Positions 6,521-38,560 of a stretch of 38,560 bases of DNA are shown piece after piece. Every line of letters begins with the position of its first letter. Within the stretch, counting starts at the first letter, position 1. The position numbers and the translations under genes are program-made. Source of the DNA: a virus (taxonomy: Duplodnaviria > Heunggongvirae > Uroviricota > Caudoviricetes). The notes below the pieces were generated by a model. It made no database searches. It was not told the origin of the DNA and saw only the letters and a program-made list of their open reading frames with translations. The stretch covers positions 1-38,560 of IMG/VR virus record IMGVR_UViG_2529292890_000001. One strand, written 5' to 3'.

Positions 6521-9500
6521 TTAACGTTCTTCCAGAGACTGAATCCGCTCTTTTATCTTATCCATTTCTCTGCGCTGCCATGCTGCCTCGATATAGAATA
6601 AGAGATCAGGTCTGACCCCCCATCTAGATCCTGCTGGCGTTATTTCAACGCGCTCAATGATGTCTTCCATTACCATCACTGGATTATCATCCTCATCAAC
6701 AATGATGCTCCCGTCATTATCAGTCAGCTGTATTTCCCTTTGGCCAGTAATGACGTCATCATATACTGCGGGATAATCGTCATAGCAAAGAAAGGCATAG
6801 CGGCATGTTGTGCTTTCTTCTTCCATGAGTCCGTGAGAAATAAGAACATCACGAAGTTGCTGCGCGATTACACCATGATGTATCCTCGCCCCTTCTTCTC
6901 CCTTTATAGCGACAGCGTTCAGCCATTTATAAGCGATATACCTGACGTCACCCCAGGCATCCAGCAATGCTTCGTCAGGAGAGACCGGCTCTGTCTTTAA
7001 TGTTCCGTCACTGGTAACCACAGGATTGGAGCCAAGATAAACTGTCGAGAACCTGTTTCCCGGACCACCAAGAGCATTTACATTATCAAGATAAGGTTTA
7101 ACATCTCCGTTCTCAAAAAGATGTTCGAGTGCGTTATATACCGCGCGACGTGGAGTACTGCTTCCGGAACCATGCAACGTTATCATTGCACCATCTGCTG
7201 AAGACGTTGTTTCACCGCCGCTAACGATTAATCTCTGAGCGGTAACATCATCAGACGGTACTTTCTTCGCAATAATGGCGTAATTGCCCTCCAGTTTGAC
7301 TTCCGCGCGAACTTGTCCTGATGTACCTGCATGGACAGTCAGTGACTGGACGGCAACATCATCTGTGAAATCAACGGGTACAGGAACCGTCCTCACGCCG
7401 GACGTCGACATAAAAGTAGGAAGCGTTCTGTTAGGAGTGGCTCCGTAGACAAAATCCCTTGAAACAAATTCTTCCTGTTTAATTTTCACCCTGAAACAAT
7501 ACAAATCAGCCGGGTGACCATCGTGAACATAAGGATATTTTCTGTTGTTATCCCCTATGCTCCATGGGTTTAGAAAGTCTTCCCCACCGAAAATGTAGTA
7601 CAGCCAGTTGTCTTTGATACAAACTGAACCAACACCAACCGCAGAGTTAACTATTCCGCCCTGATAAATCTGATCAGTAACATTAACCCACTCTACATTA
7701 TCCAGACTCCACTCATTGACGTTAACTCTGGTCATAAATGTTCTTGGATAATTTCCTGCATAACGGTTATCAGGTTCTCCTCCTTCCCACTCACCAAATG
7801 CGCGCTCACTGCCAAAAATAATCAGCTCATCGCCAACTTTGGCAAAAGGAAGGTTTGAGTGATGAACATTATTTGGGAAGCGAAGAGAATTCCATGATGC
7901 ACCTAAATCAGAGCTTCTGTGCAATGAACTACCGGGTTGAGTACTTAATGTCCCCCTGGTCGTCAGATACAGAATGCCATCATAATATTTTACACATGGC
8001 TCAGATGCATTCGCCTCATATTCTGCAGGTATGCGTCTGCGAACAAAGCTACCAGGAGAACCGAAAGCATCAGAGAAATAGAGTATCCCAAGCTCGCGTG
8101 GACCAATATCACCATTATGGTAGCCAACAGCAAAACTGTTATCGCTAATCGTCGCAAAACTGTGAATCTCAGTAACAGGAGTGCTTCCGTCAACAAAAGA
8201 AGAAATAGTTCCAAGACTGGTTTTTCTCCATGGTGACGAGTGAAATGATGTACCAAAACTCCAGTATCTACCCTCGTTATTCTGATCCACATCCTGAGTA
8301 TTTTGCGTCGTAACTGTAAAAGTATTTTTATCAATAACAGTAGTCACCGTCATATTCCCGGTAACACCTGTAACACCAGAGTTTGAGAAGTTGACAAAAT
8401 CACCAGCAAATAATCCGTGATCAGTAATGCGAATATAAGCGACTTGCTGATTTGCTGCTTTCGTTATACCACCATAAACGCGAAGGCTGCGACTCATTGG
8501 ACGATCCCACAACTCTGCAACCTGCAGTTTATTTCCGCGCACGGTCCGCGTCTCAATTACAGCAAAAAGGCGATTTCTGACAACCCCCATACTCATGCAG
8601 TGATAGTTAACTGTGGGATAGTTTTCATGTAAATCTGTAAGCCATTCCGGCGTTGTCCAGGTCTTCCCGTCATCTCCTGAGCGAACCCATGCAACATGGA
8701 GGTTATTTACACCATGGCGGTCTCCAGCCATAAAAGGCGCATAGATGACATTGTCATATACAAACGTTTTATCCTGCGTCCAGGCGTTGTACCACGGTGT
8801 ATCTGTAATTTTAAATAACTCTCCCTGGATAAAATCTTCAGAAGCATAAAAAAGAGGCTGACCCGGTATTCTCTCAAATAAAAAACGAGCATTTTTAAAT
8901 CGGCTGACATCCGGAAGAGTTGATACTTTAAAAGTAAGCCCTAATCCGTCAATTTTATAACCTGGAGATGAGGCTTCAAGGCACGCGCTTATTGCAGTGG
9001 AATCGTCATTTATACCATCACCAACAGCTCCAAAATCTTTGGGGCTAATAGCATCACGCATTTTATCCTGGAACGTTCGGTATACTGCCCCAGAACCATA
9101 CTGAATAAACCAACCAAAACCACCAACAACCCCGGCGATTGCAGCATCGACATAATTACGCATTGAGCGATTATTTACAGCGTCCTGTTCAAGTGATGGA
9201 TCTGCAAGGTTAGAAATTCTGTTTTGCTTTGCATCGTAATATTTTGCAAGCAAAGATGGTTTCATCAATGCACGTCTGAACCATCCAAAACATTGCTGGA
9301 TCAGCATCGTCAGGTAGTCAAAGGCATCTTCATGCACTTCGGGGAAAAACTTTCCCTGATTGCGAAGGTCTGTCTCCTGCACTACATCAAGCACACGATC
9401 TATCGTAATTCTCCATCCAGTAGCAAGCGGCGACGGAAGAACCACAGAACCGCCACTATAAGTGCCCGCCCCAGTTACCGTATAACCGGTATCCAGAACC

Positions 9501-9640
9501 AATTCTGTTACGTTCCCGTTCAGGTCAGACACCTGAACAACCAGGTCGGATTTTCTGAAAATTCGAAAAGTATACGGAAACGATGTCGTAACGCCGTTAC
9601 CGGTGTATTCGTTGTGGTCAACTTCGGTTGAGACCGTCAT
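6521..9640 (-). CDS. Tailspike / receptor-binding depolymerase: N-terminal particle-binding domain, central beta-helix and BNR (Asp-box) region, C-terminal self-cleaving chaperone (peptidase S74-like)
   Basis: 1039 aa; DFGAVGDGINDDSTAI (pectate-lyase-like beta-helix start); Asp boxes SGDDGKTWT and SSDLGASW; C-terminal ...VVTS-DGTLK... followed by a helical LE-rich tail. Confidence 0.8.
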   Translation of the reverse strand: MTVSTEVDHNEYTGNGVTTSFPYTFRIFRKSDLVVQVSDLNGNVTELVLDTGYTVTGAGTYSGGSVVLPSPLATGWRITIDRVLDVVQETDLRNQGKFFPEVHEDAFDYLTMLIQQCFGWFRRALMKPSLLAKYYDAKQNRISNLADPSLEQDAVNNRSMRNYVDAAIAGVVGGFGWFIQYGSGAVYRTFQDKMRDAISPKDFGAVGDGINDDSTAISACLEASSPGYKIDGLGLTFKVSTLPDVSRFKNARFLFERIPGQPLFYASEDFIQGELFKITDTPWYNAWTQDKTFVYDNVIYAPFMAGDRHGVNNLHVAWVRSGDDGKTWTTPEWLTDLHENYPTVNYHCMSMGVVRNRLFAVIETRTVRGNKLQVAELWDRPMSRSLRVYGGITKAANQQVAYIRITDHGLFAGDFVNFSNSGVTGVTGNMTVTTVIDKNTFTVTTQNTQDVDQNNEGRYWSFGTSFHSSPWRKTSLGTISSFVDGSTPVTEIHSFATISDNSFAVGYHNGDIGPRELGILYFSDAFGSPGSFVRRRIPAEYEANASEPCVKYYDGILYLTTRGTLSTQPGSSLHRSSDLGASWNSLRFPNNVHHSNLPFAKVGDELIIFGSERAFGEWEGGEPDNRYAGNYPRTFMTRVNVNEWSLDNVEWVNVTDQIYQGGIVNSAVGVGSVCIKDNWLYYIFGGEDFLNPWSIGDNNRKYPYVHDGHPADLYCFRVKIKQEEFVSRDFVYGATPNRTLPTFMSTSGVRTVPVPVDFTDDVAVQSLTVHAGTSGQVRAEVKLEGNYAIIAKKVPSDDVTAQRLIVSGGETTSSADGAMITLHGSGSSTPRRAVYNALEHLFENGDVKPYLDNVNALGGPGNRFSTVYLGSNPVVTSDGTLKTEPVSPDEALLDAWGDVRYIAYKWLNAVAIKGEEGARIHHGVIAQQLRDVLISHGLMEEESTTCRYAFLCYDDYPAVYDDVITGQREIQLTDNDGSIIVDEDDNPVMVMEDIIERVEITPAGSRWGVRPDLLFYIEAAWQRREMDKIKERIQSLEER

Positions 9641-9743
9641 GTTAAATCTCCAGATAGTCGCAGCACCCGTTGCGCCGCATATCTGGTCATTCTATTACCT
9701 AAAAAACCACATATGGATAGAAAGACTGTGAATACGAATAGAT

Positions 9744-9760
9744 ATTACCTTTCGGGTAAT
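9744..9760 (-). promoter_or_regulatory. Dispersed palindrome copy A: ATTACC-TTTCG-GGTAAT
   Basis: 17-bp inverted repeat about 100 bp upstream of the tailspike start; a half-site ATTACC (9694-9699) plus AACCACATATG (9705-9715) lies between. Confidence 0.55.
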
Positions 9761-9798
9761 TTGCAAAACGTGCTGGATAGCAAACAAATTATTTGCTA

Positions 9799-9814
9799 CT
9801 GTATAAATATACAG
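9799..9814. promoter_or_regulatory. LexA (SOS) box CTGT-N8-ACAG
   Basis: 20-mer tactgtataaatatacagtt (9797-9816) matches the LexA consensus taCTGTatatatatACAGta; overlaps a TATAAAT -10-like element about 25 bp upstream of the 9837 ATG. Confidence 0.7.
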
Positions 9815-9836
9815 TTATTGCATGGAGAATATTAAG

Positions 9837-10094
9837 ATGCAGCAGTATCACTATCCACTGGAAGACGGATTTACCGAAAGGATTCACACGCCGGGAGGCG
9901 TCAGGTCACTGGTGGAGGGATCGCACTTGATGAAATTACTCCGGGATCTCGATAAGGATGGATTTAATGTCGATGGCCCACTTGCCGAACTGACTGCACT
10001 GATTAACTACGTCACCAGCTCACAGATGTCTATGCAGGATCTGCAAACACATCTCGACTATTGTGCCGAACAATTACGAAAACAAACCCGGTAA
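9837..10094 (+). CDS. Small SOS-controlled protein, candidate antirepressor (paralog of the C-terminal domain of the BRO-N protein at 11245-11931)
   Basis: 85 aa from the ATG at 9837 (RBS GGAG; the track ORF starts at 9822); about 45 percent identical to the last ~65 residues of the BRO-N protein; LexA box immediately upstream. Confidence 0.6.
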   Translation: MQQYHYPLEDGFTERIHTPGGVRSLVEGSHLMKLLRDLDKDGFNVDGPLAELTALINYVTSSQMSMQDLQTHLDYCAEQLRKQTR

Positions 10095-10116
10095 ATTTAA
10101 AGGCCGCAAGAGCGGC

Positions 10117-10845
10117 CTATCGTTTCGCTTTGTGCTCATCCCAGCACGTTTTGCACCATGCCATTAAGCCGTCCGCATTTTGATTATTAGGGTAAAAGCT
10201 GGTTCGTTTTCTGCGGACATTACAAATTGGGCACCACTTCATATGGCGTGTATTCTTTGGGCCATCGAGACACCTTGCACACCACTTAGTCAATCCATCT
10301 GGATTTTTTGACGATTTCCTGAATTTTTCATATGGAAGGTTTATTCTGCATCGCAAGCACTGCTTGCTACCACTTGAAACTCTGTTAGCTGATTCTTCTT
10401 TTGGCGGCGATACAGAAGGTATTCTTGCTGGCTCTGATACTGCCTGAGGTGCTTTTTTAGATGACTGAGACGATATGTCATCACCAGGGAATCTTCCATG
10501 ATATGCCGGACGCGTTGACACTCCAGGTGGAAGCTCAGCTGTAAACGGCTTTGGCTGAATCAGTTGCCTCTCTTTTGCTAACTCCTGCTGTTTATAATAT
10601 GTCTGGATTACCGCACTATCATAAGCAGGAGGTGCGGAAATATTAGGCGCATTACCTCCAGTTTTTTGAAACTGAGTAGAGGTGTGTTCTATCACCTGTG
10701 TACGATTAATCGTTATCTCCCCATCTTCGGTCTTTATCGTTTTGTTATGATTAACGACCGTACGATCAGAGATCTTAGTCTTGTTCTGGTTGATAACGTA
10801 AATAATCACCGCAACCACACCAACAACTATCCAGAAAACTTCCAT
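10117..10845 (-). CDS. Membrane-anchored protein with C-terminal tandem CxxC zinc-ribbon repeats; function unknown
   Basis: 242 aa; N-terminal TM helix, S/T/P/Q-rich linker, C terminus with CLRC...WCARC...WCPIC...WCKTC; RBS GAGG; two palindromic motif copies upstream. Confidence 0.6.
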   Translation of the reverse strand: MEVFWIVVGVVAVIIYVINQNKTKISDRTVVNHNKTIKTEDGEITINRTQVIEHTSTQFQKTGGNAPNISAPPAYDSAVIQTYYKQQELAKERQLIQPKPFTAELPPGVSTRPAYHGRFPGDDISSQSSKKAPQAVSEPARIPSVSPPKEESANRVSSGSKQCLRCRINLPYEKFRKSSKNPDGLTKWCARCLDGPKNTRHMKWCPICNVRRKRTSFYPNNQNADGLMAWCKTCWDEHKAKR

Positions 10846-10864: not shown

Positions 10865-10881
10865 ATTACCTTAAAGGTAAT
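10865..10881 (-). promoter_or_regulatory. Dispersed palindrome copy B: ATTACC-TTAAA-GGTAAT
   Basis: 20 bp upstream of the start of the Zn-ribbon membrane protein gene. Confidence 0.55.
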
Positions 10882-10957: not shown

Positions 10958-10974
10958 ATTACCTTTGCGGTAAA
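10958..10974 (-). promoter_or_regulatory. Dispersed palindrome copy H: ATTACC-TTTGC-GGTAAA
   Basis: Second copy 93 bp from copy B in the same intergenic region. Confidence 0.5.
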
Positions 10975-11063
10975 TTTACATCGCACTCCTCTTGTGCCAT
11001 AGTAATCGAGCACTGGCAAAATCCAGTGCCGGGATTTGCACCCCGGATTACTAAAAGGCGCAT

Positions 11064-11086
11064 ACCACGCCAGACGTGGTTTTTTT
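11064..11086 (+). terminator. Candidate intrinsic terminator in the leader upstream of the BRO-N gene
   Basis: accacg-ccaga-cgtggt followed by T7. Confidence 0.4.
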
Positions 11087-11244
11087 ATGCGTATAGCACA
11101 GTCATGCCAGAATTATGGTGGGACGTGCAGGGGCACCGAAAGGTGCGCCGGGTCCTTTTAGCCGGTAGTGCAAACCCTGTACGTCTCACCACCAACGAGA
11201 TTTGCACCTCAGGTGGTGATTAACCATACTAAAAGGTGATTGCC

Positions 11245-11931
11245 ATGACTGCTAACGTAACCCCATCTGTTTTTCATTTTGAATCAGAAGCAACCATTCG
11301 AGCCATTGTTATTGATGGAAATCCTTGGTTTGTTGCCAAAGACGTTATTAAAGCTCTTCAACTGACAAACCCCACCATGTCAATCAAATCTCTTGATGAT
11401 GATGAAAGGGCTAAATTTAACTTAGGTCGTCAAGGCGAAACCAATATTATCAGCGAGTCAGGCCTCTACACACTGATCCTCCGCTGCCGCGATGCGGTGA
11501 CACCAGGCACTATCCCCTACCGCTTTCGTAAATGGGTTACAGGTGAGGTTCTTCCTCAGATCCGCCGCACCGGAAGTTACATTAAAAACTCGCTCCCGCA
11601 GGAAGAACGCATAAAGATGGTTGCCGACCAGGTAGCCAACGCCACAGCATCAGCAGTGATGCAGGCGATGAAGATAGAGAACAAAACCTACAGTGCCCCA
11701 CTGAAGCCCGGCTACCGCAGCCTGATTCACTCGCCGTCTGGTGTTCTCGGCCTGACGGAGAACTCACTGCTGATGAATCTGTTGAACCAGTTACAGGAAG
11801 ACGGGCACGACGTATCGGGCGCGGCGGCGGAGCTGACCACCATGTTCTGCTACATCGTCGGTGTGAGCAAATGCCTGCGTGATATCCAGACTCACGCGGA
11901 GTACATCAACGACAAAGCAGGATTCTTCTGA
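11245..11931 (+). CDS. BRO-N domain protein (antirepressor-like, two-domain)
   Basis: N-terminal FHFESEATIRAIVIDGNPWFVAKDVIKAL is a BRO-N signature; C-terminal domain paralogous to ORF 9837-10094; ATG at 11245 with RBS AAAGGTGA (track ORF uses GTG at 11236). Confidence 0.65.
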   Translation: MTANVTPSVFHFESEATIRAIVIDGNPWFVAKDVIKALQLTNPTMSIKSLDDDERAKFNLGRQGETNIISESGLYTLILRCRDAVTPGTIPYRFRKWVTGEVLPQIRRTGSYIKNSLPQEERIKMVADQVANATASAVMQAMKIENKTYSAPLKPGYRSLIHSPSGVLGLTENSLLMNLLNQLQEDGHDVSGAAAELTTMFCYIVGVSKCLRDIQTHAEYINDKAGFF

Positions 11932-12002: not shown

Positions 12003-12019
12003 ATTACCCCAAAGGTAAA
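12003..12019 (+). promoter_or_regulatory. Dispersed palindrome copy K: ATTACC-CCAAA-GGTAAA
   Basis: 26 bp upstream of the plus-strand small membrane protein gene; spacer orientation flipped relative to copies ahead of minus-strand genes. Confidence 0.5.
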
Positions 12020-29525: not shown

Positions 29526-29542
29526 ATTACCTTTCAGGTAAC
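29526..29542 (-). promoter_or_regulatory. Dispersed palindrome copy C: ATTACC-TTTCA-GGTAAC
   Basis: About 90 bp upstream of the small ORF/portal operon; half-site ATTACC (29464-29469) plus AACCACATATG (29475-29485) nearby; a TTGACA hexamer at 29505-29510. Confidence 0.55.
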
Positions 29543-32681: not shown

Positions 32682-32711
32682 GGTAATAGTTACCGTTGTG
32701 GTAATAGTACC
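32682..32711. repeat. Tandem direct repeat GGTAATAGT(T)ACC x2 just upstream of terS
   Basis: ggtaatagttacc (32682-32694) and ggtaatagtacc (32700-32711); each is an everted GGTAA/TTACC palindrome sharing the half-site of the dispersed motif. Confidence 0.5.
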
Positions 32712-36490: not shown

Positions 36491-36507
36491 TTTACCCCTT
36501 AGGTAAT
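36491..36507 (-). promoter_or_regulatory. Dispersed palindrome copy D: TTTACC-CCTTA-GGTAAT
   Basis: Abuts the DUF1064 start codon; followed by ACCACATAAG (36512-36521). Confidence 0.5.
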
Positions 36508-36552: not shown

Positions 36553-36569
36553 ATTACCTCTAAGGTAAT
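36553..36569 (-). promoter_or_regulatory. Dispersed palindrome copy E: ATTACC-TCTAA-GGTAAT
   Basis: Between the P-like stop and the DUF1064 start, 46 bp from copy D. Confidence 0.55.
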
Positions 36570-38491: not shown

Positions 38492-38508
38492 ATTACCTTT
38501 GAGGTACG
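38492..38508 (-). promoter_or_regulatory. Dispersed palindrome copy F: ATTACC-TTTGA-GGTACG
   Basis: Upstream of the small Zn-ribbon gene and O/P replication genes. Confidence 0.5.

Positions 38509-38529: not shown

Positions 38530-38560
<31 letters not shown>

Follow-up and report, generated by a model that had tools for sequence, protein, structure and literature searches.

The locus described here is a 196-bp intergenic region of an E. coli prophage from which two genes diverge, one encoding a K1 endosialidase tailspike and the other, ant, encoding an 85-aa protein, with a predicted LexA (SOS) box between them (Table 1). On its other side, ant is followed by ejection and structural genes, which is the position that the corresponding gene has in Salmonella phage SPC32H. 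From its sequence, the window (the whole stretch of DNA analysed, 38,560 nucleotides) is a Uetakevirus prophage of the epsilon15/phiV10 type whose tailspike is a K1 endosialidase, and the region matched phiV10, TL-2011b, ZX5, the epsilon15-like Salmonella phages and Enterobacter phage Tyrion, all of which fall in or near Uetakevirus. A host MASE1-EAL gene lies at the left end of the window, while at the right end the replication genes are followed by about 29 G (38532-38560), a run that is absent from the reference genome and is a sequencing or assembly artefact at the contig end. Because the contig end falls just short of the cro-like and repressor genes of the prophage, these two genes, the recombination genes and the integrase gene lie outside the window, and we read them from NZ_CP070045.1, which is a 100% match to the window over 9600-10120 and in which the whole 45-kb prophage adjoins guaA. 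Of 5426 complete E. coli genomes, 532 carried the ant locus, and the copies identical to the window came from human and poultry isolates with an endosialidase tailspike.

Table 1. Features of the ant locus and of its surroundings (window coordinates unless L008 is given).
Feature	Position	Strand	Remarks
Tailspike, K1 endosialidase	6521..9640	-	Pfam End_beta_propel, End_tail_spike, Peptidase_S74; divergent from ant
TTACC-N5-GGTAA palindrome	9745..9759	.	Between the divergent tailspike and ant genes; LexA box 38 bp downstream
Candidate ant promoter	9774..9802	+	-35-like TGGATA 9774-9779, 17-bp spacer, -10-like TACTGT 9797-9802 (left end of the box)
Predicted LexA (SOS) box TACTGTATAAATATACAGTT	9797..9816	.	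2 mismatches to the 20-bp E. coli consensus TACTGTATATATATACAGTA
Shine-Dalgarno GGAG	9824..9827	+	9 nt before the ATG; TTGCATGGAGA invariant in the 8-sequence alignment
ant, 85-aa antirepressor	9837..10094	+	Ortholog of SPC32H Ant / epsilon15 gp19 / phiV10p24; PHROG 450
G+C-rich hairpin GGCCGC-aaga-GCGGCC	10101..10118		Between the convergent ant and 242-aa ORF; terminator-like in the scan
242-aa ORF	10117-10845	-	Repeated CxxC zinc-ribbon-like motifs; PHROG 6762; weak endonuclease VII / Lar-like matches
c4 a1/b1 target sites	10997-11049	+	Rfam c4-a1b1, 36 bits
isrK	11010-11086	+	Rfam, 67.4 bits (gathering 50)
C4 antisense RNA	11111-11196	+	Rfam, 77.8 bits (gathering 45)
BRO-N antirepressor	11236..11931	+	Bro-N Pfam match; C-terminal domain a paralog of the small Ant
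Exact palindromes in the window	9745-9759, 10866-10880, 10959-10973, 12004-12018, 29527-29541, 32690-32704, 36492-36506, 36554-36568
Palindrome with 1 mismatch	38493-38507
Exact palindromes around the repressor gene, beyond the window	L008 4262-4276, 4973-4987, 5035-5049

An earlier note on this DNA, made from the letters alone, had placed the 85-aa gene at 9837-10094, and our alignment with seven relatives bore this out. The ORF finder had chosen an ATG at 9822 (90 aa), which is in frame in this window alone, by way of a 1-bp insertion that is absent from the seven relatives; we therefore rejected this start and took the gene to be 9837-10094. A Pfam search of the 85-aa protein returned no family above threshold, DinI included, and no BRO-N, ANT or KilA-type N-terminal domain, and PHROGs assigned the protein to a family of "unknown function". 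By BLASTP, the protein was 88% identical over 83 aa to the annotated ant product of Salmonella phage SPC32H, and phmmer matched it to the "Anti-repressor protein" of PDB entry 5D50 (5D50_E, E=4e-47). A Foldseek search with an AlphaFold2 model (15 sequences, pLDDT 68, moderate confidence) led, at 88-90% identity, to the same entry, [quoted passage not shown], a match that may reflect sequence identity more than fold and that is confirmed by the phmmer and BLASTP results. The Ant of phage ZX5 was 100% identical to that of the window.

The note had also described the product as a stand-alone homolog of the C-terminal domain of the BRO-N protein encoded nearby, in agreement with our finding that the product aligns with residues 147-223 of that protein at 42% identity over 77 aa (E=3e-16). 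With a sensitive profile search, the family came to 53 clusters (50% identity) among 1.8 billion representatives. The Ant domain was seen as a C-terminal module behind BRO-N N-terminal domains in two proteins (P0131 and P0163), and also C-terminal to a Rha-like (P0130) and an AntA-like (P0133) N-terminal region, both of which were assigned by reading the sequences. Its fusion to several N-terminal domains suggests a portable repressor-binding module.

The near-consensus LexA box that the note had reported at 9797-9816 stood up well, since 100 dinucleotide-preserving shuffles of the window yielded no match to the consensus within 3 mismatches. CTGT-N8-ACAG occurs three times in the window, and the two other copies have G+C-rich spacers. 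We also scored the site with a LexA weight matrix, as the note had proposed: the box reached 26.4 bits, with training sites at 15.5-28.0 bits and the next best 20-mer in the 45-kb prophage at 12.7 bits. This matrix was built on 20 E. coli LexA sites and served as a supporting check; the conclusion is independent of it because the consensus comparison and the shuffle test agree. Thus 9797-9816 is the sole strong predicted LexA box in the prophage, and it ends 20 bp before the ant ATG at 9837 and lies 157 bp from the tailspike start codon.

In eight aligned phage sequences from E. coli, Salmonella and Enterobacter, the arms TACTGT and ATACAGT were invariant, while the central spacer varied (ATAAAT, ATATTT, GTATTT, ATAAAC, ATGTTT and ATAAGC), and invariant arms around a variable spacer are the pattern expected of a LexA site. 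The four complete genomes (this prophage, phiV10, Tyrion and 65FD) each had one strong box, in all four cases 5′ of ant, which scored 22.3-26.4 bits, with every other site at or below 12.7. In single-species genomes of other genera, the box stood at -55 in Buttiauxella, and Citrobacter, Pseudocitrobacter and Scandinavium shared a position of -45, whereas prophages of Superficieibacter, Kluyvera and Klebsiella and one metagenomic contig had a left arm ATGT, not CTGT (L091, L094, L095 and L104; 14.6-19.1 bits, at about -39 to -47 relative to the start codon). Among distant stand-alone homologs placed on contigs, three had a box at -36 to -40 (25.7, 22.3 and 16.2 bits, the first two 5′ of P0150 and P0146, respectively), and three had no recognisable box (L101, L107 and L108, of which L101 has the arms with a 7-bp spacer); a divergent tailspike-like gene usually still adjoins ant in these distant members. 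For the prophages of Citrobacter, Pseudocitrobacter, Scandinavium and Buttiauxella, the distance from box to start codon was 36-55 bp. In 80 near-identical viral contigs, the box was readable at the expected position in 75, with both arms intact in 74 of these; as these loci are 99-100% identical, they are uninformative on conservation over evolutionary distance and are used here for the count of intact boxes.

The note had further seen the box overlap a -10-like TATAAAT. Overlap with the predicted promoter held, whereas the choice of hexamer did not: TATAAAT (9802-9808) is unconserved in relatives (TATGTTT in SPC32H) and has no -35 partner. The TGGATA/TACTGT pair listed in Table 1 is put forward as the candidate ant promoter because GTGCTGGATAG was invariant in the 8-sequence alignment and because the box-opening TACTGT is the annotated -10 hexamer of p95, the promoter upstream of tum in phage 186. 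This candidate matches the consensus at 7 of 12 positions, and it was not among the predictions of a generic sigma-70 scan of the window. On this evidence TACTGT is more likely than TATAAAT to be the ant -10, and with either choice the LexA box would overlap the ant promoter. The conserved CTGGATAG / CTGGCAC element was also weighed as a sigma-54 site and rejected, as the GG-N10-GC spacing does not occur there in the window.

The prophage repressor, Rep, is a 194-aa protein encoded just beyond the window (L008 4332-4916), beside the replication genes and about 29 kb from ant. Pfam identified two HTH domains, one of them HTH_3 and the other YdaS-like, and found no peptidase S24 match at E<=0.01 in the 194-aa protein, so that Rep lacks the mark of lambda CI-type self-cleavage. 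Rep matched the "Repressor" chain of 5D50 over its full length (E=3.5e-42) and was 43% identical over its full length to SPC32H Rep; in the phiV10 record this protein is entered as a putative repressor bearing two HTH motifs, and the ZX5 repressor has the same sequence as the phiV10 repressor (PMC9782041). Because Rep is just 43% identical to its SPC32H counterpart, the match between Ant and Rep in this prophage is drawn by analogy, and we infer that Ant, at 88% identity, acts on a Rep that retains 43%. Relative to SPC32H, Ant (9837-10094) is thus far more conserved than Rep, and the greater conservation of Ant than of its target hints at cross-reactivity between heteroimmune Uetakeviruses.

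The prophage contains 11 exact copies of the palindrome TTACC-N5-GGTAA (0.035 expected), and phiV10, Tyrion and 65FD contain 8-10 each. The copies mark nearly every transcription unit. In phiV10, Tyrion, 65FD and SPC32H, the palindrome recurs at syntenic intergenic positions, among them the two flanks of the repressor gene (for SPC32H, at the same places in the parts checked). Other syntenic sites are the start of the small terminase gene, the region upstream of the portal region and the surroundings of the BRO-N ant gene, and one pair lies 62 bp apart after the replication gene; the 62-bp and 48-bp pair spacings are conserved. Of 8 genomes from other genera, 6 had the copy upstream of ant at a fixed -95 to -97. 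TTACC-N5-GGTAA, which none of the genomes checked lacked, is probably the Rep operator, and the palindrome is unchanged across the genus although Rep is conserved at 43%. The copy upstream of the LexA box could provide a second layer of control on ant.

These elements can be joined in a simple mechanism. In a lysogen, host LexA would occupy the box at 9797-9816, which overlaps the ant promoter, and Ant would not be made. Upon DNA damage, activated RecA would cause LexA to cleave itself, ant would be transcribed and Ant would accumulate; Ant would then bind Rep, with its two HTH motifs and no self-cleavage domain, and remove it from its operators, which would derepress the lytic genes. We consider it highly probable that the locus is such an SOS-sensing LexA/Ant/Rep induction switch of a Uetakevirus prophage. 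The non-cleavable type of Rep, the DNA-damage inducibility of relatives and the single LexA box together fit induction by way of Ant. As to inducibility, phage ZX5, which integrates at guaA, gave 1e7 PFU/mL spontaneously and 1e9 PFU/mL after mitomycin C (PMC9782041), and a DNA-damaging microcin raised induction of phiV10-species prophages in gut isolates 21- and 47-fold. The study of lysogeny control in ZX5 covers the BRO-N protein only, and mentions neither LexA nor the small gene (PMC9782041).

The closest known system is that of SPC32H (species Uetakevirus SPN1S). Its LexA box has the same position as that of the window and aligns with it column for column, its ant is likewise divergent from the tailspike gene with ejection genes on the other side, and its homologous two-HTH Rep is also without S24, with TTACC-N5-GGTAA flanking rep. 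In contrast to SPC32H, the window comes from a prophage of an E. coli K1 host, encodes an endosialidase tailspike, is served by the diverged Rep described above, and carries an extra BRO-N fusion antirepressor behind a C4/IsrK RNA together with a 242-aa moron. In 2013, Kim and Ryu (J Virol 87:11775) reportedly found that SPC32H Rep stays uncleaved in the SOS response and that a small, LexA-repressed Ant inactivates it; a point mutation in the LexA site is said, from the same work, to give constitutive Ant in SPC32N. When we compared the intergenic regions of SPC32H and SPC32N, they differed at a single base, which changes the right arm of the box from ACAG to AAAG (TACTGTATGTTTATACAGTG versus TACTGTATGTTTATAAAGTG). 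The SPC32H system is represented by PDB entries 5D50, the solved Ant-Rep complex, and 5D4Z (Kim et al. 2016). Other papers describe Rep as a tetramer on palindromic sites, and tetrameric Ant as binding Rep and breaking up its DNA-binding form, and PMC7380047 has antirepressors produced after LexA self-cleavage, citing Kim and Ryu (2013).

The earlier note had proposed that a small, SOS-controlled antirepressor induces this prophage without self-cleavage of the repressor. This is the published function of the SPC32H ortholog, and the identity of Ant, the shared position of the box and the absence of S24 from Rep all agree with it. Since the orthologous system has been dissected both genetically and structurally, the finding is already known: the switch is the E. 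coli copy of the SPC32H switch, which was published in 2013 and whose complex was solved in 2016, and the idea was correct without being new. It would explain how a common E. coli prophage whose repressor cannot cleave itself responds to DNA damage, and its value lies in correct annotation, as the gene is still a "hypothetical protein" in the RefSeq records and in most of the E. coli phage records that we examined.

The note had likened the arrangement to 186 Tum and to the Gifsy antirepressors, and this proved right as to function. Phage 186 has a non-cleavable repressor that is inactivated by a small protein from a LexA-blocked promoter (p95), to whose annotated layout that of the window is analogous by sequence, and the 186 LexA box, TACTGTATGTTTATACAGTA, differs from the SPC32H box at the last base only. 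By BLASTP, however, the window Ant showed no significant similarity to 186 Tum (16.5 bits, E=0.061), and with no DinI domain found by Pfam we rejected membership in the Tum family. Tum, unlike Ant, is 146 aa long with a DinI-like second half (PMC3121763), and 186 belongs to the Peduoviridae and has another repressor. GfoA, GftA and GfhA of the Gifsy phages and AntC of N15 resemble the window Ant in being small, LexA-controlled antirepressors encoded outside the immunity region and acting on uncleaved repressors (PMC3121763), whereas the Gifsy genes lie in a dinI-homolog operon and their repressors are of the DicA/RacR type, not of the SPC32H Rep type. The likeness to Tum and the Gifsy proteins is functional and not one of family because the window protein belongs to the SPC32H Ant family.

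A second antirepressor module, consisting of C4/IsrK and the BRO-N ant gene, lies downstream of ant and is outside the SOS switch. As in ZX5, translation of BRO-N ant probably begins at the ATG at 11245; the product shares 83% identity with ZX5 ORF4, from which it does not differ in the last 160 residues, and overexpression of ORF4 lowered prophage titres (PMC9782041). The palindromes at 10866, 10959 and 12004 flank the gene, and the first two overlap promoter-like sites. Upstream of the gene, the C4, isrK and a1/b1 antisense elements recall the immI operon of P1 and P7 (c4-icd-ant) and IsrK of Gifsy-1, a likeness that applies to this second, fused Ant and not to the LexA-controlled ant. The E. 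coli Uetakeviruses may possibly hold two antirepressors with the same Rep-binding domain and separate inputs, the free Ant by way of LexA and the BRO-N fusion by way of C4/IsrK, a proposal that we put forward tentatively and regard as less probable than its opposite. Should both proteins target Rep, the Ant made upon the LexA trigger would in turn derepress the fused one, giving positive feedback to lysis, and the fused Ant could double as an anti-immunity factor on superinfection.

The presence of this module also raises an improbable alternative for the small protein, namely that it modulates the neighbouring BRO-N Ant, as competitor or partner, and does not act on Rep, in which case the LexA box would tune anti-immunity and not induction. 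The 42% identity between the two proteins is compatible with this reading, as are the divergence of Rep from SPC32H while Ant stayed at 88% and the fact that the ZX5 protein shown to lower prophage titres, ORF4, is the BRO-N form (PMC9782041). However, the Salmonella relatives SPC32H and 65FD have the small gene and its box with no BRO-N ant beside it, so that the genus needs no ant gene besides the small one, whose ancestral role would be independent of BRO-N ant. Moreover, the small Ant is bound to Rep in crystal structure 5D50, and E. coli relatives with a phiV10-type Rep respond to DNA damage although this Rep has no cleavage domain. We therefore retain Rep as the probable target of the small Ant.

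That LexA acts through the box on the divergent tailspike gene, alone or together with ant, and not on ant specifically, seems more improbable still. Although the box does lie in a divergent region common to the tailspike gene, it is much nearer to the start codon of ant (20 bp versus 157 bp), a conserved sigma-70-like pair for the tailspike gene, as read from the sequences, lies about 100 bp away from it, and the box change in SPC32N has reportedly been tied to ant expression. Equally slight is the chance that the switch is a relic of a defective prophage in which box and gene persist without function, an idea to which the poly-G contig end and the absence of integrase and repressor from the window lend some colour, but against which stand the intact structural, lysis and replication ORFs of the window, the integrase, rep and recombination genes of the prophage in NZ_CP070045.1, the intact box arms in nearly all of the viral contigs and the existence of near-identical phages, such as ZX5, that form plaques and are inducible (PMC9782041).

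Apart from the switch, we noted three further features of the region. The 242-aa ORF sits between ant and the BRO-N module and is missing from this place in phiV10 and ZX5, and we therefore regard it as a moron. The hairpin at its convergent border with ant is a probable terminator. Finally, on the tailspike side, a candidate promoter was seen at 9689-9717 on the minus strand, with TAGAAT (9694-9689) invariant across genera and TCCATA 17 bp upstream of it; the candidate -35 reads TTCATA in other genera, and a half palindrome, TATTACC, abuts this promoter.
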